From: Candidatus Microgenomates bacterium
GTDB taxonomy: Bacteria > Patescibacteriota > Microgenomatia > UBA8517 > JACQJR01
NCBI GenBank assembly: GCA_016204995.1
Contig: JACQJR010000001.1
Span: forward strand, 473,666-537,665
Reading direction: 5' to 3'
DNA: 64,000 nt
Position 1 is the stretch's first letter. Every line of letters begins with the position of its first letter. The notes below the pieces were generated by a model. The model searched no databases, was not told the origin of the DNA, and was given only the letters and a program-made list of their open reading frames with translations. Positions 1,016 through 44,476 of this stretch are shown piece after piece. A program made the translations under genes and the position numbers.

Positions 1016-1020
1016 AAAGA

Positions 1021-1106
1021 AAATTAACCTAATTAATCTAATTTCTAATTGACCTAAATTGGGATATTGGGATTTATTTAGAAATTAGATATTAGTAATT
1101 AGAAAT
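1021..1106. repeat. Partial copy of the AT-rich intergenic repeat family (aatttctaatt...cccaaattggga...gaaattag words)
   Basis: Shares the words taatttctaattgacctaaattggga and gaaattagatattag with copies at 9740, 18580, 19845, 21785, 22741 and 24606. Confidence 0.5.
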
Positions 1107-1244
1107 TTAAACGTTTAATCGCGCCCTACCCTTCTTTCGCCGGCTGGCCAAAACAGCTCTGCCTGTTCTAGTCCTCATTCGTTTTCTAAAACCATGGACA
1201 CGCGCTCGTTGTTTTTTATGTGGCTGATAAGTACGCTTAGGCAT
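1107..1244 (-). CDS. rpmH: 50S ribosomal protein L34. Not in the ORF track because it is under 60 aa.
   Basis: Minus-strand translation gives [45 protein letters not shown], a textbook L34 sequence. Confidence 0.85.
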
Positions 1245-9736: not shown

Positions 9737-9739
9737 AAC

Positions 9740-9832
9740 ATTAAATTTTTAATTTCTAATTACTAATTTCTAATCAAATCCCAAATTGGGAAATTTCTAA
9801 ATCTTGGTAATTTTTTAGGTCAATTCTTTAAT
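9740..9832. repeat. Intergenic repeat copy (module A plus a partial module B) upstream of virB4
   Basis: ttaatttctaattactaatttctaatcaaatcccaaattgggaaatttctaa...ttaggtcaatt, directly abutting the virB4 start codon. Confidence 0.6.
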
Positions 9833-10982
9833 TTGCCCTAGCTTTAATGGCCAAAGGTTGAACGATTTGATTACTAATTTCTACTTGAATCGGGTCGAAT
9901 ATCAAACCTTCTTTCTCTACCATAATTTCATATTGGCCTGGCATTAAAGGGGTGGCGGTTAAAAAGTGGCCGACTTTATTAGTGCGTAAAGCCCGGACTG
10001 GCCGGCCCTCACTGTCTTTAATTTCAATAATGGCCGCTTCAATTACTTTATCTTGGGGATCTATGACTTGGCCAACAATAATGTTGGGAGCAGCCGGAGC
10101 AGGCGGAGGCACAGAGGATATTTCCAGCCTTGGTGCATTTAGACGGGGGCGGCCAGGGCCACGGCGGGGCATCACCTCTGGTCTAAAGACTGGCGATAAT
10201 GGTGAAAAAGGCATAGGCGTAGCACTGGTAAACATGGAAGGAGGATTTTGGGGAGGAGGGGGCGCCACCTGAACCGGTGCATTATAGGGTACAGTAGTCA
10301 CTTTTTGATTGAGCCAGACAGGAATTTGGGTTGGGGGTTGTGGGTTAGGAGTTATGGGTGGAGAAGGTGGGGCGTATTGGGTTTGCAGTGATGGTTCAAT
10401 CGCGGAAGTCTGTGCTGCCTGAACTGGTTCTACCTCTTGGACAGGCTGGACCGATTGGGGTGCCGATGTTGGCCGCAGGCCCTGAGCGGAGTCGAAGGGT
10501 GATTTGACAGTAGGAAATAAAGAAAGCATTTTTTGGAAAAATGATCGTTCTTTTTCTTCCAGGCTAGAAACAGCTGGTTCTTCAGAAGTAGCAGGGGTGG
10601 CTAGATAAATTTCCGCCGCTTGCTCTCCGCCAGGCGTGGCCGCTATTTGCATGACCGAGACCGGCCCGGTTTCCGGCGCAAAGGTGTCAAAAGCGGCTCC
10701 TTTTTGCCAGGCAAATTTAGTAGGAGAATAAATGGCCCGCAAAAAGGCCACAAACCACATTGATAAGGGCCGATCTTCAATCGGCAGGAAAGCAAAGGCG
10801 ACGCCTAAACCGCTAAACAAAAAAATAATTGGCCATTTGATAAAACCGGGTAAAGGCGAAGCGTAAAAAAGCAAAGCCACTAAGGCGCCACCAGCCACTT
10901 GAAAGAACTGCTTTAAGGTCATGTCGCCGACCAAACGGAACTCATAACTGGCAATATTTTGCGGTACCGGGTGCTGCTGCAT
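9828..10982 (-). CDS. Two-TM membrane protein with a proline-rich linker and a C-terminal transthyretin/CarbopepD-regulatory-like beta domain. First gene of the virB4 operon; possible VirB3-like role.
   Basis: N-terminal hairpin of 2 TM helices (GGALVALLFYASPLPGF / IIFLFSGLGVAFAFL). Long P/Q-rich low-complexity segment. C-terminal GQYEIMVEKEGLIFDP motif. Confidence 0.45.
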   Translation of the reverse strand: MQQHPVPQNIASYEFRLVGDMTLKQFFQVAGGALVALLFYASPLPGFIKWPIIFLFSGLGVAFAFLPIEDRPLSMWFVAFLRAIYSPTKFAWQKGAAFDTFAPETGPVSVMQIAATPGGEQAAEIYLATPATSEEPAVSSLEEKERSFFQKMLSLFPTVKSPFDSAQGLRPTSAPQSVQPVQEVEPVQAAQTSAIEPSLQTQYAPPSPPITPNPQPPTQIPVWLNQKVTTVPYNAPVQVAPPPPQNPPSMFTSATPMPFSPLSPVFRPEVMPRRGPGRPRLNAPRLEISSVPPPAPAAPNIIVGQVIDPQDKVIEAAIIEIKDSEGRPVRALRTNKVGHFLTATPLMPGQYEIMVEKEGLIFDPIQVEISNQIVQPLAIKARAN

Positions 10983-10989
10983 AAAAGTT

Positions 10990-11100
10990 TAAAATTCGAA
11001 GCACGAATATCGAAGCTCGAAACAAATTCTAATGTTTTGAATTTTAAATATTTGAAACTTAAATATTGTTTCGGATTTCGGATTTAGGATTTCGTGCTTA
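10990..11100. promoter_or_regulatory. Long imperfect inverted repeat in the divergent intergenic region between the T4SS operon and the methyltransferase gene
   Basis: ttcgaagcacgaatatcgaagctcgaaac ... gtttcggatttcggatttaggatttcgtgcttat. The arms are reverse-complementary over about 30 nt. Confidence 0.4.
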
Positions 11101-11192
11101 TATTCTAAGGTATCATATGAAACGCAAGATGCAAGTTTTGTAAATTTACACGGAAGTTGCGGGTAGAGTACACTTAGGTCATATTTGAGACC

Positions 11193-11723
11193 TTGGGCAT
11201 ATTATTGTTACTCTTAGTGGCTTTATTTTTTATGCTGCCGTATTTGCGCAGCGGCACGAAATTCGGCGCGCCGTTTGTACCAATGGGTAAAGATGTGGTA
11301 GCGCGGGTGATGAAATTAGGAGAAGTAGGTCCGGGTAAAAAGTTTTATGATTTAGGATCAGGTGATGGCCGGTTGGTGATTGCCGCAGCCATGTTGGGAG
11401 CAGAGGCGGTAGGGGTGGAAATTGATGCGATCCGGGTTCTTTATTCAAGGCTGTGGTTAAAAGTGTTGGGTATTAAGAATGCCAGAATTATTAAGGGAAA
11501 TTTGTTTGATCAGGATTTAAGTAGCGCTGATATTGTCAGTCTGTATCTACTAGAAGAAACTAACGAAAAGTTAAAACCCAAACTGGAAGAAGAATTAAAA
11601 CCAGGAACGCCAGTAGTAGCCACCGGTTTTCCTATTCCCGGTTGGAAGCCAATTAAAGTTGATCCCCATGGTCCAGTCTACGGACCGATATACTTTTATA
11701 AAAAGATAAATTCTAAGCACTAA
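11193..11723 (+). CDS. Small class I SAM-dependent methyltransferase (TTG start as drawn in the ORF track)
   Basis: SAM-binding motif I YDLGSGDGRLVIAAAMLGAEAVGVEID, followed by an acidic post-motif II. Confidence 0.55.
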   Translation: MGILLLLLVALFFMLPYLRSGTKFGAPFVPMGKDVVARVMKLGEVGPGKKFYDLGSGDGRLVIAAAMLGAEAVGVEIDAIRVLYSRLWLKVLGIKNARIIKGNLFDQDLSSADIVSLYLLEETNEKLKPKLEEELKPGTPVVATGFPIPGWKPIKVDPHGPVYGPIYFYKKINSKH

Positions 11724-11747
11724 GCCCTAAATTCTAAATAAATTAGA

Positions 11748-12110
11748 ATGATCAAACAGCAAAATTCAAAACAATATGATTTAGAAGAGAGGACGCTAAA
11801 TTTTGCTAAAAGAGTGAGGTTGTTTGTCGTTAAGTTTCCTAAAACAATTAGTAATATTGAAGATGGAAAACAACTAGTAAGATCTTCAGGATCGGTAGGA
11901 GCAAATTATATAGAAGCAAATGAGTCTTTAAGTAAAAAGGATTTTGTAATGAGAATTAAGATTTGTCGCAAAGAAGCAAAAGAAAGTAGGTATTGGTTAT
12001 TGTTAATTGAACCCTTAGAAGAAAATAGAAAAGAAAAAGACGAATTATTACAAGAAGCAATGGAATTAACAAAAATTTTCGGCTCAATTGTAGAAAAATC
12101 TAGAGTTTGA
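11748..12110 (+). CDS. Four-helix-bundle protein (TIGR02436 / 23S rRNA intervening-sequence protein family)
   Basis: 120 aa. Family signature YDLEERT...SSGSVGANYIEAN...KICRKEAKESRYWL. Paralog of 19906..20298. Confidence 0.7.
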   Translation: MIKQQNSKQYDLEERTLNFAKRVRLFVVKFPKTISNIEDGKQLVRSSGSVGANYIEANESLSKKDFVMRIKICRKEAKESRYWLLLIEPLEENRKEKDELLQEAMELTKIFGSIVEKSRV

Positions 12111-12169
12111 AAATTTGTTAAATTTGAAATTGAATATTATTTAGGATTTAGATATTAGAATTTAGGATT

Positions 12170-13120
12170 TTAGAGTGTATCTGCACATGGTTGGCAGATC
12201 TTGCACGGACCTACTTCGCGGCTTTTATTACAGACTCGGCAAACTCCAAAATGCCATCCTTCCTCATGTGTTGCTGTTTTCAAACTGCCATCAGCATTCA
12301 TTTGATAATAATTAAATTCATATCCTTGCATTAATTCTAAATTAGAAATACCGCAGCCAAATTTTTTAGTATCCATTCTCCACCCCATTTCCATCATTTG
12401 TCTTTCTGCCAAAGCTCCAGCCAGTAAATAATCGTAATTAGTTTGGGCTTCACTAATAAGAGAGATTACTGCTTGGGTAATTGAGCGCGCATCTTGTTTG
12501 GCTACTTCCTTAATTTTTTCCGGAGCGGCGGTTTTAATGGCTTGCCAGATTTGGGGTAAGGGAATAAGATTTTCCAAAAAGGTAAATTCGTCATCCGGTC
12601 TGGGAAGGTGAAAAGTCATGCTTCTGATATCTTTAATATTGGTAATCGGCGGATAGGGCATGGGTGATAAATCGGTAATTTTCCTGGCTATGTCTATATA
12701 TTTTTCCTCAATCCATGAATCAATAGGAATGCCCCAACAATTAATAATTTTCCCTGAAAGGGCCCCTTCGGGGTTGGTGGTGCTGATACCAACTACTAAT
12801 CTACCTTCTGGATAGGGTTTAGGCGGGCTGAACCAGATGGCTAGGCTATCTTCTTTTTGGCCTAGAAAATAATTTTTAAACATTAATGCAGCCAGAGCTG
12901 TCTCGCGGTCTAATTCTGTCTCCCAGGCACAACCTTCTACTAAATCTCTATCATTTTCATTAACCAGTTGATCTTGGTTTACCTTTAACTGATAAGGATT
13001 AATTCGTTGATCTGGGGGAACATCATTAACTTCAATTGCGAGAGATGCTAAATCATCCACCAGTTGGAAGGAAGAAGCTTTCTGATATAAACTGGTATCA
13101 AAGGCCAGACGTTCAGCCAT
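12170..13120 (-). CDS. Hypothetical protein with a C-terminal Cys-rich zinc-ribbon-like tail
   Basis: 316 aa, no TM. C-terminus CRVCNKSREVGPCKICQPCADTL (CxxC...CxxC...C). Confidence 0.45.
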   Translation of the reverse strand: MAERLAFDTSLYQKASSFQLVDDLASLAIEVNDVPPDQRINPYQLKVNQDQLVNENDRDLVEGCAWETELDRETALAALMFKNYFLGQKEDSLAIWFSPPKPYPEGRLVVGISTTNPEGALSGKIINCWGIPIDSWIEEKYIDIARKITDLSPMPYPPITNIKDIRSMTFHLPRPDDEFTFLENLIPLPQIWQAIKTAAPEKIKEVAKQDARSITQAVISLISEAQTNYDYLLAGALAERQMMEMGWRMDTKKFGCGISNLELMQGYEFNYYQMNADGSLKTATHEEGWHFGVCRVCNKSREVGPCKICQPCADTL

Positions 13121-13281
13121 AGTTCCTGCTCGGGATAAATTAAGAAGTTGCTAGTTTTCTGGCTATAACAGTTGCGGCACAGCTCCGGAATTACACCGGA
13201 ATTCCTTCAACACAACTTCGTTATTGACTATGTCAAAGATAGAATTGACTGTCAAGGGGGTTTTCGTGTTAAAATGCAGAC

Positions 13282-15707: not shown

Positions 15708-17093
15708 CTATCCAAAGAATCTTCTTGTTACACCTTGTGTTATACCGCCCAAAGCTTGTTGGATTTGTGCTTGAGCTTGGGGTAGTTGTATAGGAATAGG
15801 TTTCGTGCCAAGTAGTTGATTAATTATATCTGGTATAGTAGGCAGAAGCATAACAGCTCCTAATCCAATCATACCCTGAATTATAGTTGCTCCTCCTCCT
15901 ACGTAAGGGGGTGTCCATAATGCTCCTCCTGCTTGTCCTACTAACTCAATTAAAACTCCGGTTAAAAAAATAATTATTCCAACTGTTGGAAAAACAAGAA
16001 CATTTGCTAAAACTCCTCTTAACCATGAATTCCATATTCCTTCTCCGCGTATAGCTCCCCACAGTATAAAAAGAGGAGCTAGTATAAGGTAAAATAATAG
16101 AAGTAGATAGGATCTAGCAAGAGCGAATAATACGCGAATAAGAAAGAATAAAACTGCGAGTATAAGCATAAGTAGAACTGGTAAAAATGGACTGGCAACC
16201 GCCCCAATCGCTTGCCCTAGAGTAAGTACGGTGCCAGCGGCTGAAGGTATTTTTGTCAATAGTAATACTACAGCTGCTAGTATGCCAGCTATTGCCGCTC
16301 CAATACCTGCCGATAGTCCCCCTAATCCTTGAGCAATATTCCAAGCCCCCCCCATTCCTTGGCTAGAGATGAATCCTATTGTTTGGGCAAAACCCGCTGA
16401 TGTATATTCCTGATATCTAGCTGAGGGATCAATTATGACAGTGAGACCTGTAGAGTGTAAACCAAATACCAGTAAGCCAAAGCCCAAGTATGTCAGATCG
16501 ATTATAAATCCCACAATAGCATAAGAGAATGTTACAAATATGAGGGCTATAACAATACGAGGTAAAGCTGATTGTATGGTGATAACTGCTTGAGGGGAAA
16601 TCTTAGTGCGTAGCATAATAGCTACACCAAAACCTACTGCTGCTATCACGAAAAGTAAGTAGGTAAAATTCCTGGTGGCACTCCAAGCCATTTGAAATGG
16701 GTTAATAGCATTAAAGCCAAATCCGGTTTGGGCGTAAGCTGGTTGAACTATATTCATTCGTCGTCCCAGATCTGCTAGGTAACTCACGCCCGAGGCTGGT
16801 GGGTGTGTAACCATGCCTGCTATAGCGTTTCCGGTAGCAGGTATAGCGCCTATTTTCAACTCATCTGGACAGGTTTCATTAGCACACCCTACTAACATAG
16901 TTGTTAATCCTCCCATTAATCCTGTTAGGCTTTGGAAATCAAAGCTTTCTTTGTTATATTGATTCTTTGATATATTTAGCTGGAAATCTCCTAAATTAAG
17001 AGTGCCAATAGTTGCATAGGCAGGTGAGGTTGTGAACAAGAGTCCAAAAATAAAGATTAAAATAATTACTTTCCAGTTTTTAAGAATATTCAT
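15708..17093 (-). CDS. Polytopic membrane protein, VirB6/TrbL-like candidate of the T4SS-like locus
   Basis: 461 aa. Signal peptide (FTTSPAYA), a periplasmic segment, then at least 6 hydrophobic helices rich in G/A/L. Confidence 0.45.
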   Translation of the reverse strand: MNILKNWKVIILIFIFGLLFTTSPAYATIGTLNLGDFQLNISKNQYNKESFDFQSLTGLMGGLTTMLVGCANETCPDELKIGAIPATGNAIAGMVTHPPASGVSYLADLGRRMNIVQPAYAQTGFGFNAINPFQMAWSATRNFTYLLFVIAAVGFGVAIMLRTKISPQAVITIQSALPRIVIALIFVTFSYAIVGFIIDLTYLGFGLLVFGLHSTGLTVIIDPSARYQEYTSAGFAQTIGFISSQGMGGAWNIAQGLGGLSAGIGAAIAGILAAVVLLLTKIPSAAGTVLTLGQAIGAVASPFLPVLLMLILAVLFFLIRVLFALARSYLLLLFYLILAPLFILWGAIRGEGIWNSWLRGVLANVLVFPTVGIIIFLTGVLIELVGQAGGALWTPPYVGGGATIIQGMIGLGAVMLLPTIPDIINQLLGTKPIPIQLPQAQAQIQQALGGITQGVTRRFFG

Positions 17094-17135
17094 GCTTTAA
17101 TTATACATTGTCAATTTTCAATTATGAATTAGCTG

Positions 17136-18578: not shown

Positions 18579-18579
18579 G

Positions 18580-18693
18580 TTTTAAATTTCTAATTACTAA
18601 TTTTTAATTTCTAATCAAATTCCAAGATTGGGAAATTTCCCCAATTAGGATTTATTTAGATTAATTAGAATAATTAGGTCAATTAGGTTAATT
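18580..18693. repeat. Full intergenic repeat unit (module A + module B)
   Basis: taaatttctaattactaatttttaatttctaatcaaattccaagattgggaaatttcc...ttaattagaataattaggtcaattaggttaattct. Confidence 0.65.
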
Positions 18694-19023
18694 CTATTGT
18701 GTTACTTTAAATATCGTTACGTCTACTCCGGTAAACTCTTTGATAAATTGAAGAATAAGGAAGGCCGAGATAATAACCACAAATCCAATTAAAGCATAAG
18801 TTAAAGTTTGTTTGGCGCCTTCCACTCCTTGTTTATCGCCGCCGGCAGTTAAGAATTTAAACCCTCCACTAATTAACATGATAAAAAGAGCAATACCAGC
18901 TAGAGCTATGGCAATGGTAACTACATTGGAAAAAATTACCTCTAACCCTTTTATAGTAGCTACGCCGTTTTCAGTAGCTCCGGGTACATCTTCTAACTTT
19001 GTTTGCGCCAAATAATTAACCAT
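18694..19023 (-). CDS. T4SS pilin-like protein (VirB2/TrbC-like), paralog 1
   Basis: 109 aa. Core SGGFKFLTAGGDKQGVEGAKQTLTYALIGFVVIISAFLIL is shared by all eight paralogs. Confidence 0.65.
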   Translation of the reverse strand: MVNYLAQTKLEDVPGATENGVATIKGLEVIFSNVVTIAIALAGIALFIMLISGGFKFLTAGGDKQGVEGAKQTLTYALIGFVVIISAFLILQFIKEFTGVDVTIFKVTQ

Positions 19024-19517: not shown

Positions 19518-19841
19518 TTATAAGGCCAATTTGCTAATGTCAAGAACTAAAATATTTATGTCAAAAAGTCCTTCTAGCAGGGTGGCTAAGGCAAAAACGG
19601 TAAAAACGATAAATAAACCAATTAAAGCGCTCGTCAGATGGCCGCGGGCTGATTCCACTTTTTGTTTGTCGCCGCCAGCCGTCATCCAAGAAATACCGCC
19701 TAAGAGCATCATAAAGATAAAGATAATAGCGGCTATGACTAAAGTAACTGTAATCAGCATCGGCAAAAGTTTAGCAAAAAAGTCCTCTCCTGACAGATTC
19801 TGTAAATCTTTATTTAATAAGGGATTAGTAACGCCTTTCAT
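19518..19841 (-). CDS. T4SS pilin-like protein, paralog 3
   Basis: LGGISWMTAGGDKQKVESARGHLTSALIGLFIVFTVFAL. Confidence 0.65.
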   Translation of the reverse strand: MKGVTNPLLNKDLQNLSGEDFFAKLLPMLITVTLVIAAIIFIFMMLLGGISWMTAGGDKQKVESARGHLTSALIGLFIVFTVFALATLLEGLFDINILVLDISKLAL

Positions 19842-19844
19842 AAT

Positions 19845-19905
19845 TATATTTAAATTTCTAATTACTAATTTTTAATTTCTAATCAAATCCCAATTCGGAA
19901 ATTAT
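19845..19905. repeat. Intergenic repeat copy (module A)
   Basis: taaatttctaattactaatttttaatttctaatcaaatcccaattcggaaat, abutting the paralog 3 start. Confidence 0.6.
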
Positions 19906-20298
19906 TTAGAACAATGAGAAATTAGGTTGATTTCTTTTCTGCTTTAGTTTATTAACTATTGAATTAAAAATCAAGTTTAATTCTTTAGCTTCTTGCCAAA
20001 TGATTTTTGCTTCATCTTTTAATTCTGGAACAGCTATAGGAATTATTCTTAGCCAATGCTTTACCTCTCTAGCTTCCTTTTTACATATACCAATTTTATG
20101 TTTAAAATCATCTCTGCTTTCTGCATCATCAGCTTCGCAATAATTTGCGCCTACGCTCGTTCCCGCCTTAACAAGCTGGGTTATTAATGGATCGGTGGTA
20201 GGACTTCTTGGAATTTTTCTACAAAATTTAATAATTTCCTCTCCAAATTTAGCTGTTCTTTCTTCCAGATCATATTGAAACTTTGTGTCATTGGGCAT
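19906..20298 (-). CDS. Four-helix-bundle protein (TIGR02436 family). Second paralog, inserted inside the pilin array.
   Basis: YDLEERTAKFGEEI...AGTSVGANYCEAD...ICKKEAREVKHWL. Aligns with 11748..12110. Confidence 0.7.
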   Translation of the reverse strand: MPNDTKFQYDLEERTAKFGEEIIKFCRKIPRSPTTDPLITQLVKAGTSVGANYCEADDAESRDDFKHKIGICKKEAREVKHWLRIIPIAVPELKDEAKIIWQEAKELNLIFNSIVNKLKQKRNQPNFSLF

Positions 20299-20347
20299 TC
20301 TTTAGATCAATTAGAAATTAGGTCAATTAGAGTAATTTAATTCTCCT

Positions 20348-21782: not shown

Positions 21783-21784
21783 AG

Positions 21785-21915
21785 TTTAAATTTCTAATTA
21801 CTAATTATTTTAATTAACCTAAATAAATCCCAATGACCAAATTGGGAAATTTCTAATTTTTAGTCATTATTTAGAGCAATTAGAAATTAGATTAATTAGG
21901 TCAATTTAAAATTCT
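21785..21915. repeat. Full intergenic repeat unit (A + B). A short insertion splits the cccaa..ttggg palindrome.
   Basis: taaatttctaattactaattattttaattaacctaaataaatcccaatgaccaaattgggaaatttctaa...gcaattagaaattagattaattaggtcaattt. Confidence 0.65.
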
Positions 21916-21920
21916 CTATA

Positions 21921-22703
21921 TTAGAATCCTGGTAAACCTAAAATATCAAGTCCGATTAATTTTAACAGAAATACGGCAAAAATCAGAAATAGCAAACCGG
22001 AAATAGCAGCAGTCAATTGTTCTTTACCGCCCTTTAGCTGATCTGGATTTCCACCCGAAGTGAGAATTTTGAGGCCACCTACTAAAATTAACAAAAAGGC
22101 AATTCCTCCGGCAATACCCAATATCCATCTTAGAGTCCATGTTACAAATTCGCTAGTATTAGTTACAGGGATGCATCCAAGTGCAGTGACTATACCCTCA
22201 TTCCCATCTGGGCAATTTGTAATAGCAGCCCCTTTTCCAGCCTCGCCGACTATAGGAGGGGAATTGGGATCTCTTACTATAAAAAGATTTTCCCCTACAT
22301 ATTTATCGGTAGGATCTAAAAATTCGCTGCTTTGTTCATATAACATAAGATGCCAAACTCCTTCTGTAAAGGTGAGTGAACCGCAATCGTTGTGTACATG
22401 TGTATCGCCACAAAAGTACTGTACTACTATTTTTCCTGCTGCATCAGGTTTCTGGTTATAGAATACATTTGCCTCGGCACCCTTTTTACCATCTCTGGCA
22501 ATTCTTTTTGTTATTAAGGTATATTCCTTATCGGCTTTTAATCGGCTAATAGTAATTTTGACATTCTGGGGTGTAGTAGGCGCAAAAAGGGAGGGATTAA
22601 TACTGATAACTTGAGCATTTGCTATGCTGTAATTTTTGGGAAAAACAAATAAAATAGTCCATAACCCCAGTAGTAAATAGAGGGCCAATAAAATCTTTGC
22701 CAT
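21921..22703 (-). CDS. Pilin-like protein, paralog 8, with a roughly 190 aa Cys-containing N-terminal globular domain fused to the conserved pilin core
   Basis: 260 aa. C-terminal VGGLKILTSGGNPDQLKGGKEQLTAAISGLLFLIFAVFLL matches paralogs 1-7. N-terminal domain has CGDTHVHNDCGS and NCPDGNEGIVTALGC. Confidence 0.6.
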   Translation of the reverse strand: MAKILLALYLLLGLWTILFVFPKNYSIANAQVISINPSLFAPTTPQNVKITISRLKADKEYTLITKRIARDGKKGAEANVFYNQKPDAAGKIVVQYFCGDTHVHNDCGSLTFTEGVWHLMLYEQSSEFLDPTDKYVGENLFIVRDPNSPPIVGEAGKGAAITNCPDGNEGIVTALGCIPVTNTSEFVTWTLRWILGIAGGIAFLLILVGGLKILTSGGNPDQLKGGKEQLTAAISGLLFLIFAVFLLKLIGLDILGLPGF

Positions 22704-22740: not shown

Positions 22741-22860
22741 TCAATTTAATTTCTAATTCCTAATTACTAATTTCTAATCAAATCCAAATTTTGGGAAATT
22801 TCTAATTTTAGTCATTTTTTAGGTCAATTAAAAATTAGAATAATTAGGTTAATTCTAACT
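22741..22860. repeat. Full intergenic repeat unit (A + B) in the divergent region between pilin paralog 8 and the SpoIID-domain gene
   Basis: taatttctaattcctaattactaatttctaatcaaatccaaattttgggaaatttctaa...ttaggtcaattaaaaattagaataattaggttaattct. Confidence 0.65.
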
Positions 22861-22874
22861 GGTATAATTACTTT

Positions 22875-24602
22875 ATGAAATTGGTGTTAGCTGTTTTAGT
22901 AATCTTACTTTCCCTCTACGTTCTCGGTTCTAAGTTCTATACTCTAGCATCTAATTGTCCAGCGACGGATTATGATTGTCAGATTAAGGAAATCCAAGCA
23001 GAAATTGACGCCCTCAAACCAGCCCATGAGCAAAATGAGAAAGAACTGGCTGATTTACGCAAACAAATTAATAGTATTAAAAGCAGATTGGCCAATATTG
23101 ACAGCCAATTGTCAGCCTTGGCCAAAAGTATTGCCGCACGGGAAGAAGATTTGGAGCTACAAAAGCAACTATTGGAAATTCGGGTCAGTAATTTGTATGT
23201 GCGAAGCAGAGTTTATTCGCCGTTAATAGTTTTTCTGGCGGCCAACTCGGCGGCAGAATTTACCAGGGAATTAGTAATTAGGGAGCAGATTACTGCCGAA
23301 GACAGGCGGGTAATTGGAAGCCTGGCCGATGAGCTAATTAAGTTAAACCAGGATAAAGAAACTTTGAAAAACGCCCAAGCCAGTTTAACTAAAACTAAAA
23401 CCCAGCTAGATCAGCAGGCGGGGTTTTTAGCCAAAGAAGTAGAAAAAGTTGGTTCCTATCTTTCCACGCTTTCTTCCCGGCAAAATGAGCTACTGGCCTT
23501 AAAAGCCGGCGGCTTTTCTGCTTCCATTGGAGATACTCCACCGACACTTGAGCCTTGTTCGGGCCCGCCAGGTTCTTCTGCTTTTTGCGACCCCGGGTTT
23601 CGGGCCGCCTTTGCCGCCTTTTCTTTCGGGGCGCCGCATAGAAAAGGCATGAGTCAGTTTGGCGCTTTTGGCAGGTCTAAAGCCGGCCAAAGCTACCAGC
23701 AAATTTTACAAAGCTATTATGGCGATGTGGAGATTAGAAAAGTAGGCATGCCTGCTCAAATTAATACTACTGTCGGCGCCTTGGCTTTTGAAGGCAGATA
23801 TTTACGGGGCATTGCCGAAATGCCCACTAAATGGGCAGATGAAGGCGGCTATGAAGCCTTAAAGGCCCAGGCAGTCGCCGCCCGCAGCTATGCCCTGGCT
23901 TATGTCGGTTGGCGAATTGGTAATCCTAGTGCCGGGGGTAAAATTTGCGTCACCGAAGCCTGTCAAGTTTATAAAAATAGCAAAGCCGATAGTCCTGGTA
24001 GGTGGGCTGAGGCGGTTAGTCAGACTGAAGGAGAAGTATTGGTCAGTAAGGCGAGCGGTGAAATTGTCAATGCTTTTTATGCTTCAACGGCTGGCGGTTA
24101 TACCTTTTCTTATGCGAGCATTGGTCATAATACGCCGGGTTTGTGGGATACTTCTGATGGTAAAGGCGGCTGGCCGGATCAGTCTTGGGAGAAAAAGGCC
24201 GGCTCGCCATGGTTTTATAAAGCCTGGTTTAAAACCAGAAGTGGTGCCAGTTGCGGCAAAGCCAATCCTTGGTTAACCAGCGAGGAACTGGCTGATATTT
24301 TAAATGCCTGGCGGGTACTGGCGGGCGCTGGTGGTGACGTCTCGCGAGTTTCACCAATTACTACTTCGTGCTTTTCCGGCAATCCATATTCTCTTTCTGA
24401 TTTACAAAATATTGGCGGTTTTAACAGTGTTAGTGATGTTTCCGTAGTTTATGGTAATGATGGTTCTACTCAAACAGTCGGTTTTACTACCAACAAAGGG
24501 CAAGTCGGTGTGCCGGCGGAAGAATTTAAAAAGGCTTTTAATTTACGCGCCCCCGGCTATATCGGGATTAAGAGTAGCTTGTTTAATATTGTGAAGCTAT
24601 AG
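22875..24602 (+). CDS. Secreted coiled-coil protein with a C-terminal SpoIID/LytB-type peptidoglycan-remodelling domain
   Basis: Signal peptide, then a long heptad-rich region (QAEIDALKPAHEQNEKELADLRKQ...). The SpoIID signature is EGGYEALKAQAVAARSYALAYVGWR. Confidence 0.6.
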   Translation: MKLVLAVLVILLSLYVLGSKFYTLASNCPATDYDCQIKEIQAEIDALKPAHEQNEKELADLRKQINSIKSRLANIDSQLSALAKSIAAREEDLELQKQLLEIRVSNLYVRSRVYSPLIVFLAANSAAEFTRELVIREQITAEDRRVIGSLADELIKLNQDKETLKNAQASLTKTKTQLDQQAGFLAKEVEKVGSYLSTLSSRQNELLALKAGGFSASIGDTPPTLEPCSGPPGSSAFCDPGFRAAFAAFSFGAPHRKGMSQFGAFGRSKAGQSYQQILQSYYGDVEIRKVGMPAQINTTVGALAFEGRYLRGIAEMPTKWADEGGYEALKAQAVAARSYALAYVGWRIGNPSAGGKICVTEACQVYKNSKADSPGRWAEAVSQTEGEVLVSKASGEIVNAFYASTAGGYTFSYASIGHNTPGLWDTSDGKGGWPDQSWEKKAGSPWFYKAWFKTRSGASCGKANPWLTSEELADILNAWRVLAGAGGDVSRVSPITTSCFSGNPYSLSDLQNIGGFNSVSDVSVVYGNDGSTQTVGFTTNKGQVGVPAEEFKKAFNLRAPGYIGIKSSLFNIVKL

Positions 24603-24605
24603 TGA

Positions 24606-24690
24606 TATAATTGACCTAAATAATGTCCAAGATTGGTAAATTTCTAAAATTTGGGATTTATTTAGATATTAGATATTAGAAATTTTTACC
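24606..24690. repeat. Intergenic repeat copy (module B-like, gaaatttc/attag words)
   Basis: ttgacctaaataatgtccaagattggtaaatttctaaaatttgggatttatttagatattagatattagaaattt. Confidence 0.5.
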
Positions 24691-24693
24691 TTT

Positions 24694-25389
24694 ATGCCGG
24701 ATATTTACATAGATAATTCAAAAAAAGATAGTTCTGGGTCTGGAGTTGGTAGTTCGGCGAAGGATAAAAAAATAGTATCAGATTCTCCTAACCCTGAACT
24801 TATCACTCATAACCAACCTGGCCATACTCATAATCCCTTAGCCTCCTATTGCTATCAGCCGGAAAATGTTTCTTTTGAAACACAAGATCCCCAAGAAAAA
24901 ATAATTTTATTTCTACGCAAGCACCCTATTATCAATCTTCCTTGGATAATTATTGCGGTAATTCTATTACTGGCGCCCACTTTTATTTTACCAATTTTTC
25001 CCTTGCTTTCCTTCCTGCCGGCTAAATTTCAGCTAGTAGCTATTTTAGGTTGGTATCTGGTGACAGTGGCTTTTATTTTGGAAAACTTTTTATCTTGGTT
25101 TTTCAACGTGGATATAGTGACTGATGAAAGGGTGATTGATATAGACTTTCATAATTTAATTTATCGTGAGGTATCGGAAACAAAGATAGATAAAGTTCAG
25201 GATGTAACTTATAAAATGGGAGGTGTACTGCGAGCTATGTTCAATTATGGTGATGTATTTTTACAGACAGCCGGTACGGTGCCTAATTTTCAATTTTTGG
25301 CAGTGCCTAGGCCAGATGAGGTAGTAAAAGTCTTGCAAGCTTTGAGAATGGAAGAAGAACAGGAAGCTTTGGAGGGGAGGGTTAGATAA
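24694..25389 (+). CDS. Membrane protein with a bacterial PH domain (bPH_2, YdbS/YdbT-like)
   Basis: Two TM helices, then DERVIDIDFHNLIYREVSETKIDKVQDVTYKMGGVLRAMFNYGDVFLQTAG, typical of bPH_2. Confidence 0.5.
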   Translation: MPDIYIDNSKKDSSGSGVGSSAKDKKIVSDSPNPELITHNQPGHTHNPLASYCYQPENVSFETQDPQEKIILFLRKHPIINLPWIIIAVILLLAPTFILPIFPLLSFLPAKFQLVAILGWYLVTVAFILENFLSWFFNVDIVTDERVIDIDFHNLIYREVSETKIDKVQDVTYKMGGVLRAMFNYGDVFLQTAGTVPNFQFLAVPRPDEVVKVLQALRMEEEQEALEGRVR

Positions 25390-28592: not shown

Positions 28593-29189
28593 ATGGGAAC
28601 AAACGAATTAAGAAAAAGAAAAATTTGGCAGGATGTCAGCGGTGGAAAGGCCGGAGTTGCAGAGAAGAAATTTTTTGACATCTTCACGAAGGAGTTTAAA
28701 GGTACAAATTTTAGAATTCGCTCAAAACCGAGAGAATTCAAAGATATTTACTCAAAAATAAAACTTACCGCAGAAATATTAAAGGGTATCTATAACCCAA
28801 ACGAAACTTGGGTACACGGACTAATTCCTGACTACGCAATAGATAACATCAAGACAGGGAAAACACTGTATGTAGAGGTTAAAAGGCAGGATGGGTGGGT
28901 TGAGGGTAAACCTTGCAAAGCTGGTAGAGGAAATGCCCATGAGAGATCGAATAAACTGTTCACTCCAGGAATACTAAAATTAATGAGAGAACACGGAAAA
29001 ATAGGAAAGGACGTGTTGCCGTTCTGGGTTGTTTTTCAGGGAGATATAGCTCGCGACCCCAAAAGAGTTAGGGAAATACATTTTTGGTACGGGGATTATT
29101 CCGACAACTTCTTTTTATGGAGTAATTCTTTGGATGAGAAATCTGTAATTAATCACTTCAACAAAAAACTGAAACGCTTTTTACTTTAG
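28593..29189 (+). CDS. Putative type II restriction endonuclease (PD-(D/E)xK)
   Basis: 198 aa. LIPDYAIDNIKTGKTLYVEVKRQ gives a PD...EVK catalytic motif. Lies between the C gene and a convergent methyltransferase. Confidence 0.45.
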   Translation: MGTNELRKRKIWQDVSGGKAGVAEKKFFDIFTKEFKGTNFRIRSKPREFKDIYSKIKLTAEILKGIYNPNETWVHGLIPDYAIDNIKTGKTLYVEVKRQDGWVEGKPCKAGRGNAHERSNKLFTPGILKLMREHGKIGKDVLPFWVVFQGDIARDPKRVREIHFWYGDYSDNFFLWSNSLDEKSVINHFNKKLKRFLL

Positions 29190-29191
29190 TT

Positions 29192-29908
29192 CTACCGTTC
29201 CGTAAAAACATCTAAGCCCCACGCTGTCCATCCATCGGCTTTATTGCGAGCAAATAACTCAATTCGTTTGTGGTGAGGAAACATTTTTTCTATCGCCCCC
29301 ATCACTTCTTTTGGTTTTTCGCTGTGCTCTCCTCTCCGAACTCGCACAAGCTGTTTAATATTTCTTGCGCCTCTCGGTTTTGGTATTTTGCCGCGCTTAA
29401 ATACCAAGCATAACTCACAATTTGAAAGTGTATACTGGCCTGGATTGTGATTCATTTTGTCCCAAACAAAAGCAACGGTTTTGTAATTAAATCCCCACGC
29501 CTCGCCCAATGCGACTGCTTGGGCTAAATGAGGATTTGATGTCCACATGAACAAAAGGCAATCATTATTTGCAATCTCTTGTACTGGTAATTTTTTTAAC
29601 TCTTCCGTTTTGAGTGTTGGATACTTAAACGATGCCGAGCTTATAAATATTTTTCGGGATAAATCGATTTTATCGACGCTAGCACTACTTTTATCAAATT
29701 GCAGTTTGCCATTGTAGTCCCAAGGAGGGTCGGCGTAAATTATATCGAACTTTTGATTGGGTAATTTTGGATAAAGCTCATCCAAAGTGTTTTGCCTTGT
29801 TCGTTTCTTGGCGTCGTGTTTGTAAATTGAATAACCAGTTTGTTTTTTCGATAGACCAAACATAGTTTGTTGACTAATTTCTCTCATGTTGATAACTGTA
29901 GTATACAC
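29192..29908 (-). CDS. MT-A70-family N6-adenine DNA methyltransferase. Start is GTG at 29908 or ATG at 29887.
   Basis: Motif IV IIYADPPWDYN. Convergent with, and 2 bp away from, the endonuclease gene. Confidence 0.7.
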   Translation of the reverse strand: MYTTVINMREISQQTMFGLSKKQTGYSIYKHDAKKRTRQNTLDELYPKLPNQKFDIIYADPPWDYNGKLQFDKSSASVDKIDLSRKIFISSASFKYPTLKTEELKKLPVQEIANNDCLLFMWTSNPHLAQAVALGEAWGFNYKTVAFVWDKMNHNPGQYTLSNCELCLVFKRGKIPKPRGARNIKQLVRVRRGEHSEKPKEVMGAIEKMFPHHKRIELFARNKADGWTAWGLDVFTER

Positions 29909-41760: not shown

Positions 41761-42900
41761 ATGATTCTTTACGAATTTGAAGGTAAAAAACTTCTCGTCA
41801 GTGCTGGCATTAGTGTCCCTAATTCTCAATTAATTGAATCAGCTTCTGAAAAAATAAATCTAACGGCACCTCTAGTTTTGAAGGCCCAAGTATTATCGGG
41901 TAAAAGAAAGGATGTCGGCGGAATAGTCGTAGTTGACGAAATCTCAAATCTCAAATCTCAAATCTCAAATCTCTTAAGAAAAGAAATTAATAAAGAGAAA
42001 GTAGAGAAAATTTTAGTGGAAGAAAAAGTAGATTATGAAGGCCCAGAATATTACATTTCAATTTCTTATGATACTGACAGTCGCGGGCCGGTGTTGACAA
42101 TCTCTGAAAGTGGCGGGACAGGTGTGGAAGAAAGGAAAGTTCAAGTTTATCCCATCTCTCCTCTTAATCCAGACCTTCCAGTCACTGATATTCCAGTGGA
42201 AATTTTACAAAAACTGGTGAATTTATTTTTTGATCAGGATATGTTACTTTTAGAGATTAATCCTTTGGTAAAAACTAAAGATAATCAATGGTTGGCTCTT
42301 GATGCCAAGATTAATTTAGATGATACCGCAAGAGATCGTCATCAAGAGTGGAATTTTCCGCCCCGGGCTGTAGCTGGTCATAGTCCTACGGAAGCAGAAA
42401 TTGCCGCTAAAAAAATTGATGAGGGTGATTATCGGGGGACGGCTGGCTCTACTTATTTTGATCTAGACGGCGACATTGCCATTCTGGCCTCAGGCGGCGG
42501 GGCCTCGCTGACCGCCATGGATGCACTGCTGACTGCCGGTGGCAAGCCGGCCAATTACACTGAATATTCTGGTAATCCGCCTCGCGAAAAAGTAACTAAA
42601 CTGACGCAGATTGTGCTATCCAAACCTAATTTGCATGGCTTGTGGATTGTAGGGGCTGTTGCTAATTTTACTGATATTTATGAAACATTGTCTGGTTTTA
42701 CTGAAGCTTTGCGGCAGGTTAAACCTAAACCTAATTATCCGATTGTGATTCGGCGGGGCGGGCCGCGAGATACAGAAGCCTTTGAAATGTTAAAAAACGT
42801 TCGCGATTTTGATTTACATATTTATGGGGCTGAAACGTCAATTAACGAATCGGCTAAAATTATGAGCAAGCTTGCTAAAACTTATGCTGCTGCTTCCTAA
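41761..42900 (+). CDS. Succinyl-CoA synthetase beta-subunit-like ATP-grasp protein (candidate citryl-CoA synthetase large subunit)
   Basis: 379 aa. ATP-grasp N-terminus (LYEFEGKKLL...VLKAQVLSGKRKDVGGIVVV). CoA-ligase domain (LLEINPLV, ILASGGGASLTAMD). Confidence 0.75.
   Translation: MILYEFEGKKLLVSAGISVPNSQLIESASEKINLTAPLVLKAQVLSGKRKDVGGIVVVDEISNLKSQISNLLRKEINKEKVEKILVEEKVDYEGPEYYISISYDTDSRGPVLTISESGGTGVEERKVQVYPISPLNPDLPVTDIPVEILQKLVNLFFDQDMLLLEINPLVKTKDNQWLALDAKINLDDTARDRHQEWNFPPRAVAGHSPTEAEIAAKKIDEGDYRGTAGSTYFDLDGDIAILASGGGASLTAMDALLTAGGKPANYTEYSGNPPREKVTKLTQIVLSKPNLHGLWIVGAVANFTDIYETLSGFTEALRQVKPKPNYPIVIRRGGPRDTEAFEMLKNVRDFDLHIYGAETSINESAKIMSKLAKTYAAAS
41943..41974 (+). repeat. Heptanucleotide tandem repeat (tctcaaa) x4.5 inside the sucC-like coding sequence
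   Basis: atctcaaatctcaaatctcaaatctcaaatctc encodes ISNLKSQISNL. Because the unit is 7 nt, adding or losing one unit would shift the frame. Confidence 0.8.
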
Positions 42901-43789
42901 AGGCGCCAAAATTATCGGTCAGGGAATTACCGGTTCTGAAGGATCGGTGGCAACGGGCTGGATGAAGGCTTATGGCACTAATTTAGTAGCCGGAGTGACG
43001 CCGGGCAAAGGCGGGCAAGTTGTGGAAGGGGCGCCCATTTTTAATACCATAAAAGAAGCGTTGGAGAAGGTTGACCCCGATAAAATCGGGGTTGATGGAG
43101 CAGTTCAATTTGTACCGCCTTTGCGCGTTAAAGATGCAGTGCTGGAAGCAATTGAAGCTGGCATCAAGTTTATTTTAATCGGGGCTGAAAAAGTACCCAC
43201 CAAAGACGCGGTTATTATTTATAGCCAAGCCCAGAAAAATAACGTTAATATTATCGGTCCGAGTTCTGTTGGTTTAATTAATCCGGCCAGAAAACTAAAG
43301 ATTGGTTCTATTGGCGGAGCCAATCCTGATCGGGTGTTTGCCGAAGGCTCTGTTGCGGTAATTTCCAAATCCGGCGGCATGACTTCAGAAATTGGTTTAC
43401 TATTAAAAAATAACGGTTTAGGGGTGTCGTGGGCGGTGGGAATTGGCGGAGATAGAATTATCGGCACTGATTTTAGCGATTTTTTACTGGCCGTTGAGGA
43501 AGATAGCGAAACACAGGCTTCAGTGATGTTTGGGGAATTAGGGGGCACTTATGAAGAAAGAGTGGCAAAACTGGTGAAGGAAGGTAAGATTACTAAGCCA
43601 GTGGTAGCTTTTATCGCCGGTGAATTTACTGCCCTGTTACCCAGCCAGGTGCAATTTGGTCATGCAGGTGCCATAATTGAAGGAAAGCGGGGTTTGCCTG
43701 ATTATAAAAGGAAAGTCTTAAAAGAAGCCGGAGTATTGGTAGCAGAAACGCTTGATGATATAGTAAAATTACTATTGCCTAATGCCTAG
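42872..43789 (+). CDS. Succinyl-CoA synthetase alpha-subunit-like CoA-binding protein (candidate citryl-CoA synthetase small subunit)
   Basis: CoA-binding Rossmann fold (KIIGQGITGSEGS). GVTPGKGG motif. Phosphohistidine loop region (QFGHAGAII). Confidence 0.75.
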   Translation: MLKLMLLLPKGAKIIGQGITGSEGSVATGWMKAYGTNLVAGVTPGKGGQVVEGAPIFNTIKEALEKVDPDKIGVDGAVQFVPPLRVKDAVLEAIEAGIKFILIGAEKVPTKDAVIIYSQAQKNNVNIIGPSSVGLINPARKLKIGSIGGANPDRVFAEGSVAVISKSGGMTSEIGLLLKNNGLGVSWAVGIGGDRIIGTDFSDFLLAVEEDSETQASVMFGELGGTYEERVAKLVKEGKITKPVVAFIAGEFTALLPSQVQFGHAGAIIEGKRGLPDYKRKVLKEAGVLVAETLDDIVKLLLPNA

Positions 43790-43795
43790 TCCCTA

Positions 43796-44476
43796 GTGCC
43801 TAATAATATGGCAAAAACAGTGACGCATCAAAATCTGCAAAGTTTATTTGGCCAAGATGATCTTTTGGCGGTCAGTCAAAGTAAAAGTTTTGTCGGCATG
43901 ATTTTTGAATTGTTATCTGAAAAAGAACCAACAGGGCAAGAACTAGCCATTTTTGAATTAATTTTGAATTTGTCAATTGACCATGGTCCAGAGACTCCTT
44001 CGGCTACAGCCGTGATTGAAGCAGCTAAAACCGGTAAAACTATTTCTGAAAGTTTGGCCGCAGGAATTTTACAAATTAATGATGTTCACGGTGGTGCCGG
44101 AGAACAGGCAATGGAACTTTTTTATCAAGTTCAAGGTGAAAAGTTAAAAGTGCAAAGTTTGGTGGAAAATTCTTTAAAAGAAGGAAAGAGGATGGCTGGA
44201 TATGGGCATAGATTGTATGAAGATATAGATCCGCGGGCGCAGTTGATTTTACAAAAACTACAGGAAGTAAATTTAGGAGAGGAATATATTAAGATTGCTC
44301 AAGAAATTGAAGCAGAATTGGCCAGTCAAAAAGGTAAAAAATTACCCTTGAATATTGATGGAGCCATTGCGGTCGTTCTTTGTAGCTTTGGTTGGGAGCC
44401 TAAACTTGCTAAATCTGTCTTCATCATTGCCCGCACTCCCGGCCTCTGTGGACAATTTTTAAATAATTCAAAATAG
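43796..44476 (+). CDS. Citrate synthase-like small protein (candidate citryl-CoA lyase)
   Basis: 226 aa holding only the C-terminal catalytic core of the citrate synthase family (SIDHGPETPS, NDVHGGAGEQAM, GYGHRLYEDIDPRAQ). Confidence 0.65.
   Translation: MPNNMAKTVTHQNLQSLFGQDDLLAVSQSKSFVGMIFELLSEKEPTGQELAIFELILNLSIDHGPETPSATAVIEAAKTGKTISESLAAGILQINDVHGGAGEQAMELFYQVQGEKLKVQSLVENSLKEGKRMAGYGHRLYEDIDPRAQLILQKLQEVNLGEEYIKIAQEIEAELASQKGKKLPLNIDGAIAVVLCSFGWEPKLAKSVFIIARTPGLCGQFLNNSK

Follow-up and report, generated by a model that had tools for sequence, protein, structure and literature searches.

The repeat of ~110 nt that recurs between the genes of this DNA is most probably the ORF-less form of an IVS-like palindromic cassette, which in its full form is tied to a gene encoding an S23p four-helix-bundle protein. 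A preliminary description had proposed either a promoter, leader or operator cassette coordinating the whole locus or a MITE-like element. The regulatory reading fails, and the MITE-like one is nearer to what was found.

The window, meaning the whole stretch of 64,000 nucleotides that was analysed, has a G+C content of ~40%, and its genes are those of a CPR/Patescibacteria genome. They include yidD-rnpA and dnaA-dnaN, a PrgI-like and a SpoIID-like gene, and genes for an M23 peptidase and a VirB4/TraG-like ATPase, together with nine genes that have the CPR T4SS_pilin domain (PF18895).

Repeat search and alignment located eight full or partial copies of the repeat (1016-1110, 9737-9830, 18579-18693, 19842-19905, 20299-20347, 21783-21920, 22742-22862 and 24603-24693), all of them intergenic and all within the first 25 kb of the 64 kb, and the diagnostic words of the repeat were found in these first 25 kb only. 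The 26-nt pattern of the right arm (module A of the preliminary description) matched six times in the window against 0.02 matches expected, and the pattern covering left arm and centre (module B) nine times against 0.95. The composite thus recurs where it was first reported, in homologous copies that are far above chance. Six aligned copies have a mean column identity of 63%, with AATTGACCTAAA and GGGATTTRWTTAGAAATTAG as conserved blocks, the former being the best conserved of the repeat. At gathering score no Rfam family covered any of the copies, and between 17 and 25 kb only chance-level matches appeared at E<=5. The same scan found no rRNA in the window, and every window copy lies between protein-coding genes. 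The ORF-less elements are the following:

1016 to 1110, plus strand: copy c1, with left arm, short centre and right arm (repeat search, alignment)
9737 to 9830, minus strand: copy c2, left arm truncated (alignment, pattern matches)
10983 to 11100, minus strand: palindrome of a second flavour (TCGAAGC / TTTCGGA heptamers; TRF), which reaches the ATG of a PrgI-like gene at 10982
18579 to 18693, minus strand: copy c3, the one originally reported (repeat search, alignment; fold -23 kcal/mol, z -3.1)
21783 to 21920, minus strand: copy c6, its central palindrome carrying an insertion of 5 nt (fold -27.2 kcal/mol, z -3.25)
22742 to 22862, minus strand: copy c7 (alignment; fold z -2.4)
24603 to 24693, plus strand: copy c8, left arm truncated (alignment, pattern matches)

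Copy c1 lies between rnpA (671-1015, minus) and dnaA (1378-2772, plus), both recognized by Pfam, its left arm abutting the start of rnpA; as RNA it folds with -20.5 kcal/mol (z -2.9). Between the PrgI-like gene and the VirB4/TraG-like ATPase gene is c2, inside which the PrgI-like ORF terminates (TTGACCTAA). Copy c3 extends from the stop of the pilin gene 18694-19023 to the ATG at 18578 of a gene whose 480-aa product had no relatives in the metagenome scan. The divergent genes 21921-22703 (pilin domain) and 22875-24602 (SpoIID-like) are separated by c7, and c8 is placed between the latter and gene 24694-25389, with a TATAAT box overlapping its 5' edge. The claim that the right-arm module always abuts a minus-strand start codon holds for four of the seven right arms (9736, 18578, 19841 and 21782) and not for the other three, one of which abuts a plus-strand ATG (24694), while one lies 41 nt from the ATG at 22703 and one ~270 nt from dnaA. 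The repeat does not precede most genes of the locus either, as only about 9 of the 25 gene starts in 1-25.4 kb have it. That it contains no Shine-Dalgarno (SD) sequence is true but nothing special here, a loose SD-like word being found in only 17 of the 66 genes of the whole window; in many of these genes a TATAAT-like box stands 6-7 nt upstream of the ATG.

On either side of a short centre the repeat has an arm, the left one built of ~9-nt units (AATTNNNCT) and the right one of 7-nt units (ATTAGNA). Read toward the downstream gene, a full copy starts with four ~9-nt units, AATTAACCT, AATTGACCT, AATTATTCT and AATTAATCT, continues with a centre that holds small palindromes and ends with four 7-nt units, ATTAGAA, ATTAGTA, ATTAGAA and ATTTAAA. 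The small palindromes had been noticed before, as had the 5-nt insertion in one of them, which was confirmed in the copy at 21828-21847. TRF recovered the periods 7 and 9 of the arms as tandem arrays; those of period 7 have 4.3-4.6 units with 82-88% match in six copies, and the arrays cover the arms only, not the whole composite. The arms are partly complementary, and since CTAATT of the left arm is the complement of AATTAG of the right arm the repeat is an imperfect palindrome.

Folded as RNA, the four window copies of full length have -20 to -27 kcal/mol (z -2.4 to -3.25), whereas c2 and c8, in which most of the left arm is missing, fold no better than shuffles (z -0.9 and -1.8, respectively). 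The median fold z of 120 copies from other genomes is -2.8; in these same copies the duplex between the arm and its upstream sequence amounts to -17.6 kcal/mol, where controls gave -12.2 to -13.5 kcal/mol (p=1e-14 and 9e-7). Selection at the RNA level was addressed with the arm pairings of 27 cassettes, in which G:U pairs (93) were not in excess of A:C mismatches (109; p=0.29). Nothing in this comparison points to selection on an RNA stem, and the arms may be kept at the DNA level.

Two full cassettes are present in the window:

19842 to 20347, minus strand: full cassette of the first flavour, with left arm 20299-20347, gene 19906-20298 and right arm 19842-19905
11705 to 12169, plus strand: second full cassette, of a related flavour, with CTAAnnn arm 11705-11747, gene 11748-12110 and ATTTAGG arm 12111-12169

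Gene 19906-20298 matches PF05635 (E=1.2e-13), TIGR02436 (E=6.5e-20) and PDB 2RLD (E=4e-12), and gene 11748-12110 matches the same two families (PF05635, E=9e-14; TIGR02436, E=7.5e-21), those of S23p, the "23S rRNA IVS protein" (an Avd-like four-helix bundle). The words related to the repeat that had been noticed at 11724-11747 and 12111-12169 are therefore real, being the arms around the second of these genes. In the first cassette the right arm abuts the ATG of the pilin gene 19518-19841, and the 3' end of the four-helix-bundle gene (19901-19932) is a second, degenerate copy of the left arm, in direct repeat. The flanks of the two genes pair with -19.5 and -24.3 kcal/mol (the latter for 11705-12169) against a control median of -13.7 kcal/mol. 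The ORF of a full cassette is ~125 aa in size and encodes the four-helix-bundle protein only; a Pfam scan of ~60 window ORFs revealed neither a transposase nor, within the 64 kb, an rnc gene. In all, the window has one full copy of the first flavour and one full cassette of a related flavour, while its ORF-less elements are seven copies of the first flavour and a palindrome of a further flavour (10983-11100).

The centre of the ORF-less copies may point to their origin. Full cassettes read ...AATTGACCTAAATA-ATGAC(C/T)AAT...AAATTTTAG-ACATTTGGGAATTGGGATTT..., and c6 and c7 read ...CTAAA(T/A)A-ATGACTAAAA(A)TTAG-AAATTTCCCAA...GGATTT..., so that the centre ATGACTAAAA(A)TTAG of these two looks like the start and the stop of the gene brought together. 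In c6 this centre is ATGACTAAAAATTAG, which resembles the start of the four-helix-bundle gene joined to its stop. Among the matches listed from other genomes, 123 ORF-less copies include 30 with a start-like remnant, 25 with a stop-like one and 13 with both in order, where shuffles give 1.3, 0.3 and 0. Because the centre retains the first and last few bases of the gene, we infer that copies without an ORF are products of internal deletion. Events may, however, have run the other way, the gene being inserted into palindromes that already existed.

An exact search of one-genome-per-species contigs with the 26-nt right-arm pattern returned at least 120 intergenic sites in many CPR lineages, and all 125 of the genome matches listed are intergenic. 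The preliminary description had left to such a search whether the element is lineage-wide or specific to the T4SS locus, and it proved not to be specific to this locus. Elsewhere the arrays usually end 5-22 nt before a start codon or run into the stop codon of the neighbour; among the matches listed, a start codon follows the 26-mer at this distance in 30 of the 53 co-oriented cases. The 26-mer agrees with the strand of its flanking genes in 37 same-strand contexts and opposes it in 46, again among the matches listed, a test which is uninformative because on either strand the palindrome presents the CTAA-arm first and the TTAG-arm second. When the asymmetric left arm was used instead, by way of a crude regular expression, 15 cases had the same orientation and 9 the opposite one. 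There were 0 matches in 2.9 million viral contigs, which makes carriage by phages unlikely.

The copies of the window are 74% identical to each other and 72% identical to copies of other genomes, single pairs reaching 89%. Copies within a genome are thus no closer than those of different genomes, which is unlike a recent burst of a neutral MITE. The composite of ~100 nt is 72-89% identical across distant lineages, while the flanking proteins are 37-57% identical. In the syntenic locus L079, whose flanking proteins have this same 37-57% identity to those of the window, one site is occupied by a near-identical element and a second site by a palindrome that is of another flavour. This locus carries the flavour-2 palindrome at the junction of c8 (SpoIID-like gene and next gene), and also an element similar to the window palindrome 10983-11100, at the position of which relatives carry arm, gene and arm. 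Alignment with six related loci identified, upstream of that palindrome and outside the repeat, one further feature:

11105 to 11165, minus strand: conserved promoter/operator-like motif GTGWAAA-N10-TTGCA-N16-TAnnnT

In relatives the GTGWAAA motif is followed directly by arm, gene and arm or by the PrgI gene. The place of this promoter-like motif, upstream of the palindrome or cassette, indicates that such elements lie in a transcribed leader and not upstream of a promoter. Copies c1 and c7, however, may not be transcribed, since they lie between divergent genes and the extended -10 boxes that belong to those flanking c7 are placed beyond the element.

Junctions orthologous to those of the window are polymorphic for the insertion. 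Among 74 loci that encode VirB4 relatives at 50-72% identity, most leave no spacer between the PrgI-like gene and the start of VirB4, the two being adjacent or overlapping, and a few have arrays of other 7-nt units at this junction. The closest relatives, L134 and L135, have no element between their pilin genes. The loci L214 and L219 carry the full arm-gene-arm cassette at the PrgI/VirB4 junction, which in the window is the site of c2. Relatives at this distance (VirB4 identity of 50-72%) leave unoccupied both the PrgI/VirB4 junction and the pilin gaps in which the window has the element.

Arms of the first flavour flank the gene in nine genomes (the window and L079, L014, L213, L214, L215, L216, L217 and L219), the pairing of arm and gene holding in nine of nine first-flavour genes with 70-81% identity to the window protein; the genes of L079 and L014 are 73-77% identical to gene 19906-20298. 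The contexts of six further genes are diverse and include the gene placed between iPGM and ATP-synthase genes, between DprA and a Mg-chelatase-like gene, between SoxY and SoxZ (in a MAG labelled Nitrospirae) and, twice, between PrgI and TraC-VirB4. An iterative profile search of all loci gave 21 family genes, which after a duplicate was dropped represent 20 distinct loci, 19 of them with usable flanks. For these 19 CPR genes the median flank duplex is -24.3 kcal/mol against -13.7 kcal/mol in 213 control ORFs (p=2e-7). The sequence and the period (7, 8 or 9) of the units vary by lineage among the CPR cassettes, and the sequence of the arms is tracked by the similarity and subtype of the protein.

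Outside CPR, a homologue is encoded in 31 of 72,556 plasmids, mostly of cyanobacteria. Ten plasmid genes that were inspected (Cyanobacteriota, Bacteroidota, Chloroflexota) lie between same-strand operon genes, such as an RND adaptor and permease, DrmD and MmeI, DUF1156 and HEPN, or fabH and M20, and most of them are flanked by inverted heptamer arrays: GTAATTC/GAATTAC, TTCAAAA/TTTTGAA, GTCGGAG/CTCCGAC (-72 kcal/mol) and TTTAGAT/ATCTAAA. Nostoc punctiforme PCC 73102 has two cassettes on pNPUN01. In two 50-kb controls, family genes ranked first and second of 34 genes for flank pairing in one and second of 42 in the other. Family genes between inverted short-period arrays thus number 19 in CPR and 12 in Cyanobacteria, Bacteroidota or Chloroflexota, the latter being a sample and not a census. 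Some MAGs labelled 'Gammaproteobacteria' are doubtful, the CAYTZB01 protein and its gene context being identical to those of a Microgenomates MAG, and for this reason the statement across phyla is based on the named plasmids and the contig with SoxY and SoxZ instead. On these, the four-helix-bundle gene family is tied to inverted arms across phyla.

The cassette has its closest counterpart in the S23p IVS of Coxiella burnetii, Leptospira and Xanthomonas (PMC4990558). Both have a PF05635/TIGR02436 ORF in the loop between terminal inverted repeats, with tandem heptamers up to the ATG of the ORF, although the left arm of the first flavour has period 9. Both also have ORF-less or decaying forms and a sporadic distribution across phyla, and the IVS is regarded as selfish. 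In Coxiella burnetii the 23S IVS has a 28-bp terminal stem, and tandem GACAGAT heptamers extend to the ATG of S23p, RNase III cleaving at the first heptamer (PMC4990558). The differences lie in the setting, since the S23p IVS sits in helix 9, 25 or 45 of the 23S rRNA and fragments it whereas the window cassettes are found between protein-coding operon genes, and in the stem, which is a unique sequence of 28 bp in the IVS and an array of 7-9-nt units, 40-50 nt long, in each window arm. Moreover, ORF-less and full forms stand at ~8:2 in the window, unlike in the S23p IVS, and cutting by RNase III would here be a matter of analogy. Complementary termini, as an IVS has, were found in the four full-length copies and in both full cassettes and not in c2 and c8. 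An S23p ORF in the loop was found at 19906-20298 and 11748-12110, the other eight copies retaining start-like and stop-like remnants in place of an ORF. IVP-encoding insertions have been recorded in CPR rRNA genes.

Heptamer arrays have long been known, without an explanation, in cyanobacteria, Xanthomonas, Geobacter and Beggiatoaceae (PMC4692102, PMC2700814, PMC4679880). The cyanobacterial STRR, the GGGAATC pairs of Xanthomonas and the heptanucleotide elements of Geobacter (PMC4692102, PMC2700814) share with the present arrays the 7-nt units, the intergenic position and often the arrangement in convergent or inverted pairs. The arrays of the window are, unlike them, degenerate, ordered and joined to a unique centre. 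These reports do not tie the arrays to PF05635 genes, a link found here in 12 non-CPR genes that are not a census. The TAACTGA repeats of marine Beggiatoaceae, Cyanobacteria and Bacteroidetes (MacGregor 2015, PMC4679880) also consist of stop-containing heptamers directly before SD-less starts and are patchy across phyla, suggesting transfer, but they are direct repeats of another unit sequence with neither partner arm nor associated gene. REP/BIME sequences (RAYT transposases) are likewise intergenic palindromes in operons, with proposed roles in mRNA stability or termination. REPs, however, are 20-40 bp long, G+C-rich and have GTAG/CGTC heads, none of which applies to the window elements, and no RAYT was seen.

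If the repeat were the common promoter, leader and operator of the T4SS/pilin locus, with TTGACC as -35 box, the central palindromes as operator and the right arm as leader, it would account for AATTGACCTAAA being the most conserved block, for the element pointing with transcription in five of five same-strand contexts of the window and for right arms reaching an ATG in five copies. We consider this highly improbable. A promoter scan found no -35/-10 pair spaced by 16-18 nt at a fixed place common to the copies and flagged none of their TTGACC sites; 17 nt past TTGACC stand TAGAAA, GGGAAA or TGGTAA, most copies having no TAnnnT -10 at 16-18 nt, and in other genomes the distance from TTGACC to the right arm ranges from 0 to ~40 nt. 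The family adjoins unrelated genes at 120 or more places in other genomes, and the closest relatives do without it at the orthologous T4SS/pilin junctions, where they have either an ordinary promoter or no spacer. Furthermore, the conserved promoter-like motif of the T4SS genes lies upstream of the palindrome and not inside it, the -10 boxes of the neighbours of c7 are outside the element, and window genes typically have their TATAAT 6-7 nt before the ATG instead. TTGACC was rejected as a -35 box, being one variant of the 9-nt unit whose position varies. Co-duplication with pilin paralogues was also rejected as the full explanation, since copies precede the VirB4, 480-aa, bPH-domain, rnpA and SpoIID-like genes too. 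A further possibility is that the arms are arrays of binding sites read in 7-nt register which control translation downstream; we find it doubtful, though compatible with the explanation favoured here, and the four-helix-bundle protein itself may be the binder. Right arms do reach start codons in the window and elsewhere (the 30 of 53 co-oriented cases among the matches listed), SD sequences are rare, the subtype of the protein tracks the sequence of the arms and copies stay near consensus across genomes. UAG-N4-UAG-N4-UAG matches the spacing of HutP sites. For the TAACTGA repeats that abut start codons in Beggiatoaceae, S1, cold-shock or CsrA-like binders have been proposed (PMC4679880). However, the period is 9 nt in left arms and 8 nt in some other flavours, two copies have no start codon next to them, and simple linkage would also give co-variation of protein and arm.

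Replication slippage would make of the arrays ordinary heptanucleotide microsatellites, functionless and unlinked to the four-helix-bundle gene. Period 7 indeed dominates the non-coding tandem repeats of the window and 1 Mb of related loci, with 38 arrays where periods 6, 8, 10 and 11 give 5-10 each, and some relatives have arrays of a different unit at the same junction. An excess of heptamers in bacteria has also been published (Mrazek 2007, as cited in PMC4679880). Slippage is nevertheless a very unlikely account of units that differ in a conserved order (ATTAGAA-ATTAGTA-ATTAGAA-ATTTAAA) around a conserved, non-repetitive centre, of a composite that keeps its 72-89% identity in distant lineages where the flanking proteins have 37-57%, and of arms that come in inverted pairs strongly associated with one gene family. 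The MITE-like reading fared better, in that the imperfect palindrome, the multiple copies, the polymorphism among lineages and the longer form with an ORF all stood. Like MITEs such as the Correia/NEMIS elements of Neisseria, ERIC and RUP, the repeat is multi-copy and intergenic, has ~100 bp (within the 50-500 bp of this class) and imperfect terminal inverted repeats, and is apparently an internal-deletion derivative of a longer element; co-transcription with neighbours, known for MITEs, is likewise proposed here. Correia elements are cut by RNase III. A classical MITE would be moved in trans by a transposase, for example one of IS200/IS605 type that recognizes hairpins, with the four-helix-bundle gene as a passenger or neighbour. 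The inverted repeats, the size of ~100 bp, the copy number, the lineage polymorphism and the strictly intergenic position (125 of 125 among the matches listed) agree with this. It remains improbable, since the longer partner encodes a four-helix-bundle protein and no known transposase, of which Pfam found none in the ~60 window ORFs, no target-site duplication came to notice, the 2.9 million viral contigs gave no match, gene and arm pair in nine of nine first-flavour cases and across other flavours, and same-genome copies are no closer to each other than to those of distant lineages.

For the cassette itself we tentatively propose the following mechanism, by analogy with the 23S rRNA cassette. 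The full form, with left arm, four-helix-bundle gene and right arm, sits between same-strand genes of host operons and would be co-transcribed with them. Its arms would pair into a long A/U-rich stem that could serve as a substrate of RNase III, while 7-nt units containing TAA or TAG would stop any incoming frame within three units. The right arm would provide an A/U-rich, SD-less leader up to the next ATG, and insertion inside operons would be tolerated because such a leader is given to an organism that hardly uses SD sequences. Identity and mechanism together form the explanation that we favour, and as a whole we hold it to be somewhat likely. Transcription, folding and cleavage by RNase III are, in it, read from the sequence. 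Several observations speak against it: c2 and c8, without most of the left arm, fold like shuffles, arm pairings have no excess of G:U (93 vs 109), window copies (74%) are no more alike than copies across genomes (72%), neither a target-site duplication nor a transposase was seen, and all copies are crowded into 25 of the 64 kb. Inspection by eye of the borders of the copies, which fall on stop and start codons, revealed no evident target-site duplication.

A wider idea, which we regard as rather unlikely, is that the S23p/IVP protein and its inverted short-period arrays form one autonomous unit. Acting on arms of its own flavour, the protein would recognize, protect or mobilise them, and arms lacking an ORF would be its non-autonomous derivatives. 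STRR, the heptamers of Xanthomonas, Geobacter and Beggiatoaceae, the palindromic spacers of CPR and the 23S IVS would then be a single pan-bacterial mobile cassette that enters hairpin loops and operon junctions without a conventional transposase. A full-text search of the literature found no paper that links PF05635 genes outside rRNA to inverted short-period arrays, and none that describes ORF-less derivatives in CPR operons. The link joins three puzzles of 20-35 years, that is, the identity of the 23S IVS, the role of the S23p (Avd-like) protein and the heptanucleotide arrays of intergenic DNA, in one testable anatomy, a gene between inverted short-period arrays in every lineage sampled. 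ORF-less arms populate the operon junctions of very small CPR genomes, where spare DNA is scarce. As these elements mimic promoters and leaders, they will mislead the prediction of operons and regulons in CPR genomes, and they also mark the sites within operons that tolerate insertion.

In many of the T4SS-like loci of CPR genomes, the promoter is followed first by a four-helix-bundle gene with its arms, which lies directly 5' of the PrgI-like gene. This arrangement was found in eight of the loci compared with the window (L123, L129, L132, L137, L145, L152, L176 and L214), and the position recurs across lineages despite differing arm sequences. The window itself has a conserved motif upstream of its PrgI/VirB4 operon, which is given here together with the other features discussed in this part.

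11105-11165, minus strand: motif GTGWAAA-N10-TTGCA-N8-TTCAY-N4-TAnnnT, upstream of the PrgI/VirB4 operon
13145-13218, minus strand: AdoCbl-II (cobalamin) riboswitch, Rfam 41.7 bits, over the gathering score
27419-28215: smpB followed directly by the tmRNA gene (tmRNA, Rfam 145.8 bits)
9060, 26120, 39654 and 40158: palindrome CCTGCCTGCGCAGGCAGG, all four within coding regions

The motif is conserved between the window and loci L123, L129, L134, L135, L145 and L176. Judged by its sequence, it resembles a promoter that overlaps with an inverted repeat, GTGAA...TTCAC, and may therefore serve the CPR T4SS-like locus as an operator.

Many window genes have a TATAAT-like box 6-7 nt 5' of the ATG (for example those starting at 17093, 22703, 22875, 35391 and 40672), and words resembling a Shine-Dalgarno sequence are scarce, being found in 17 of the 66 genes. 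Taken together, these two features suggest that leaderless mRNAs are widespread in this organism. We also observed a 33-nt A/T-rich word, AATTATACATT...CAATT.T.AATTA, in two copies that are 79% identical, one (1252-1284) upstream of dnaA and the other (17099-17131) in the gap preceding gene 15708-17093, which resembles a promoter region; this word is not related to the main repeat. Concerning structured RNAs, the riboswitch lies upstream of an unannotated gene encoding 316 amino acids (12170-13120), and the small ORF listed by ORF callers across the tmRNA is spurious.

The four-helix-bundle gene of locus L216 (JACRGT010000061.1), from a MAG labelled Nitrospirae, is 70% identical to that of the window and has the same type of arm sequence. 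It is placed between soxY and soxZ, with secG and rho on the same contig, and may represent transfer of the whole cassette outside the CPR. Among the pattern matches, at least some of the non-CPR labels are probably wrong, since a protein of L212 (CAYTZB010000009.1), labelled 'uncultured Gammaproteobacteria bacterium', is identical to one of L213 (JACPFY010000010.1), a Microgenomates MAG, and the gene context is the same.

The G+C-rich 18-nt palindrome CCTGCCTGCGCAGGCAGG is present in four copies, one with a single change, in the genes encoding a VirB4-like protein, a 608-aa ORF product and DnaG (two copies), and every copy reads as (L/S)(P)AQAG. Its location inside coding regions recalls the Rickettsia RPEs, which are in-frame palindromic insertions. 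In locus L075 a word resembling this palindrome adjoins an element with the arms of the main repeat.

At 28593-29908 an MT-A70 methyltransferase gene adjoins that of a MunI-like type II restriction enzyme. The characterised enzyme has the target CAATTG, and the repeat arms are rich in words containing AATTG.

Heptamers were also found in and between citrate-related genes. A perfect array, (AAATCTC)x5 at 41939-41973, lies in frame within the ATP-grasp/citrate-binding gene 41761-42900 and encodes the peptide EISNLKSQISNL; since seven is not a multiple of three, the frame would shift if a single unit were gained or lost. Two citrate-lyase-like ORFs are separated by a gap that is filled with the non-palindromic heptamers CCTAATG, CCTAGTC, CCTAGTG and CCTAATA (43772-43810). 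These extend to an ATG at 43808 that may be the true start instead of the GTG at 43796.
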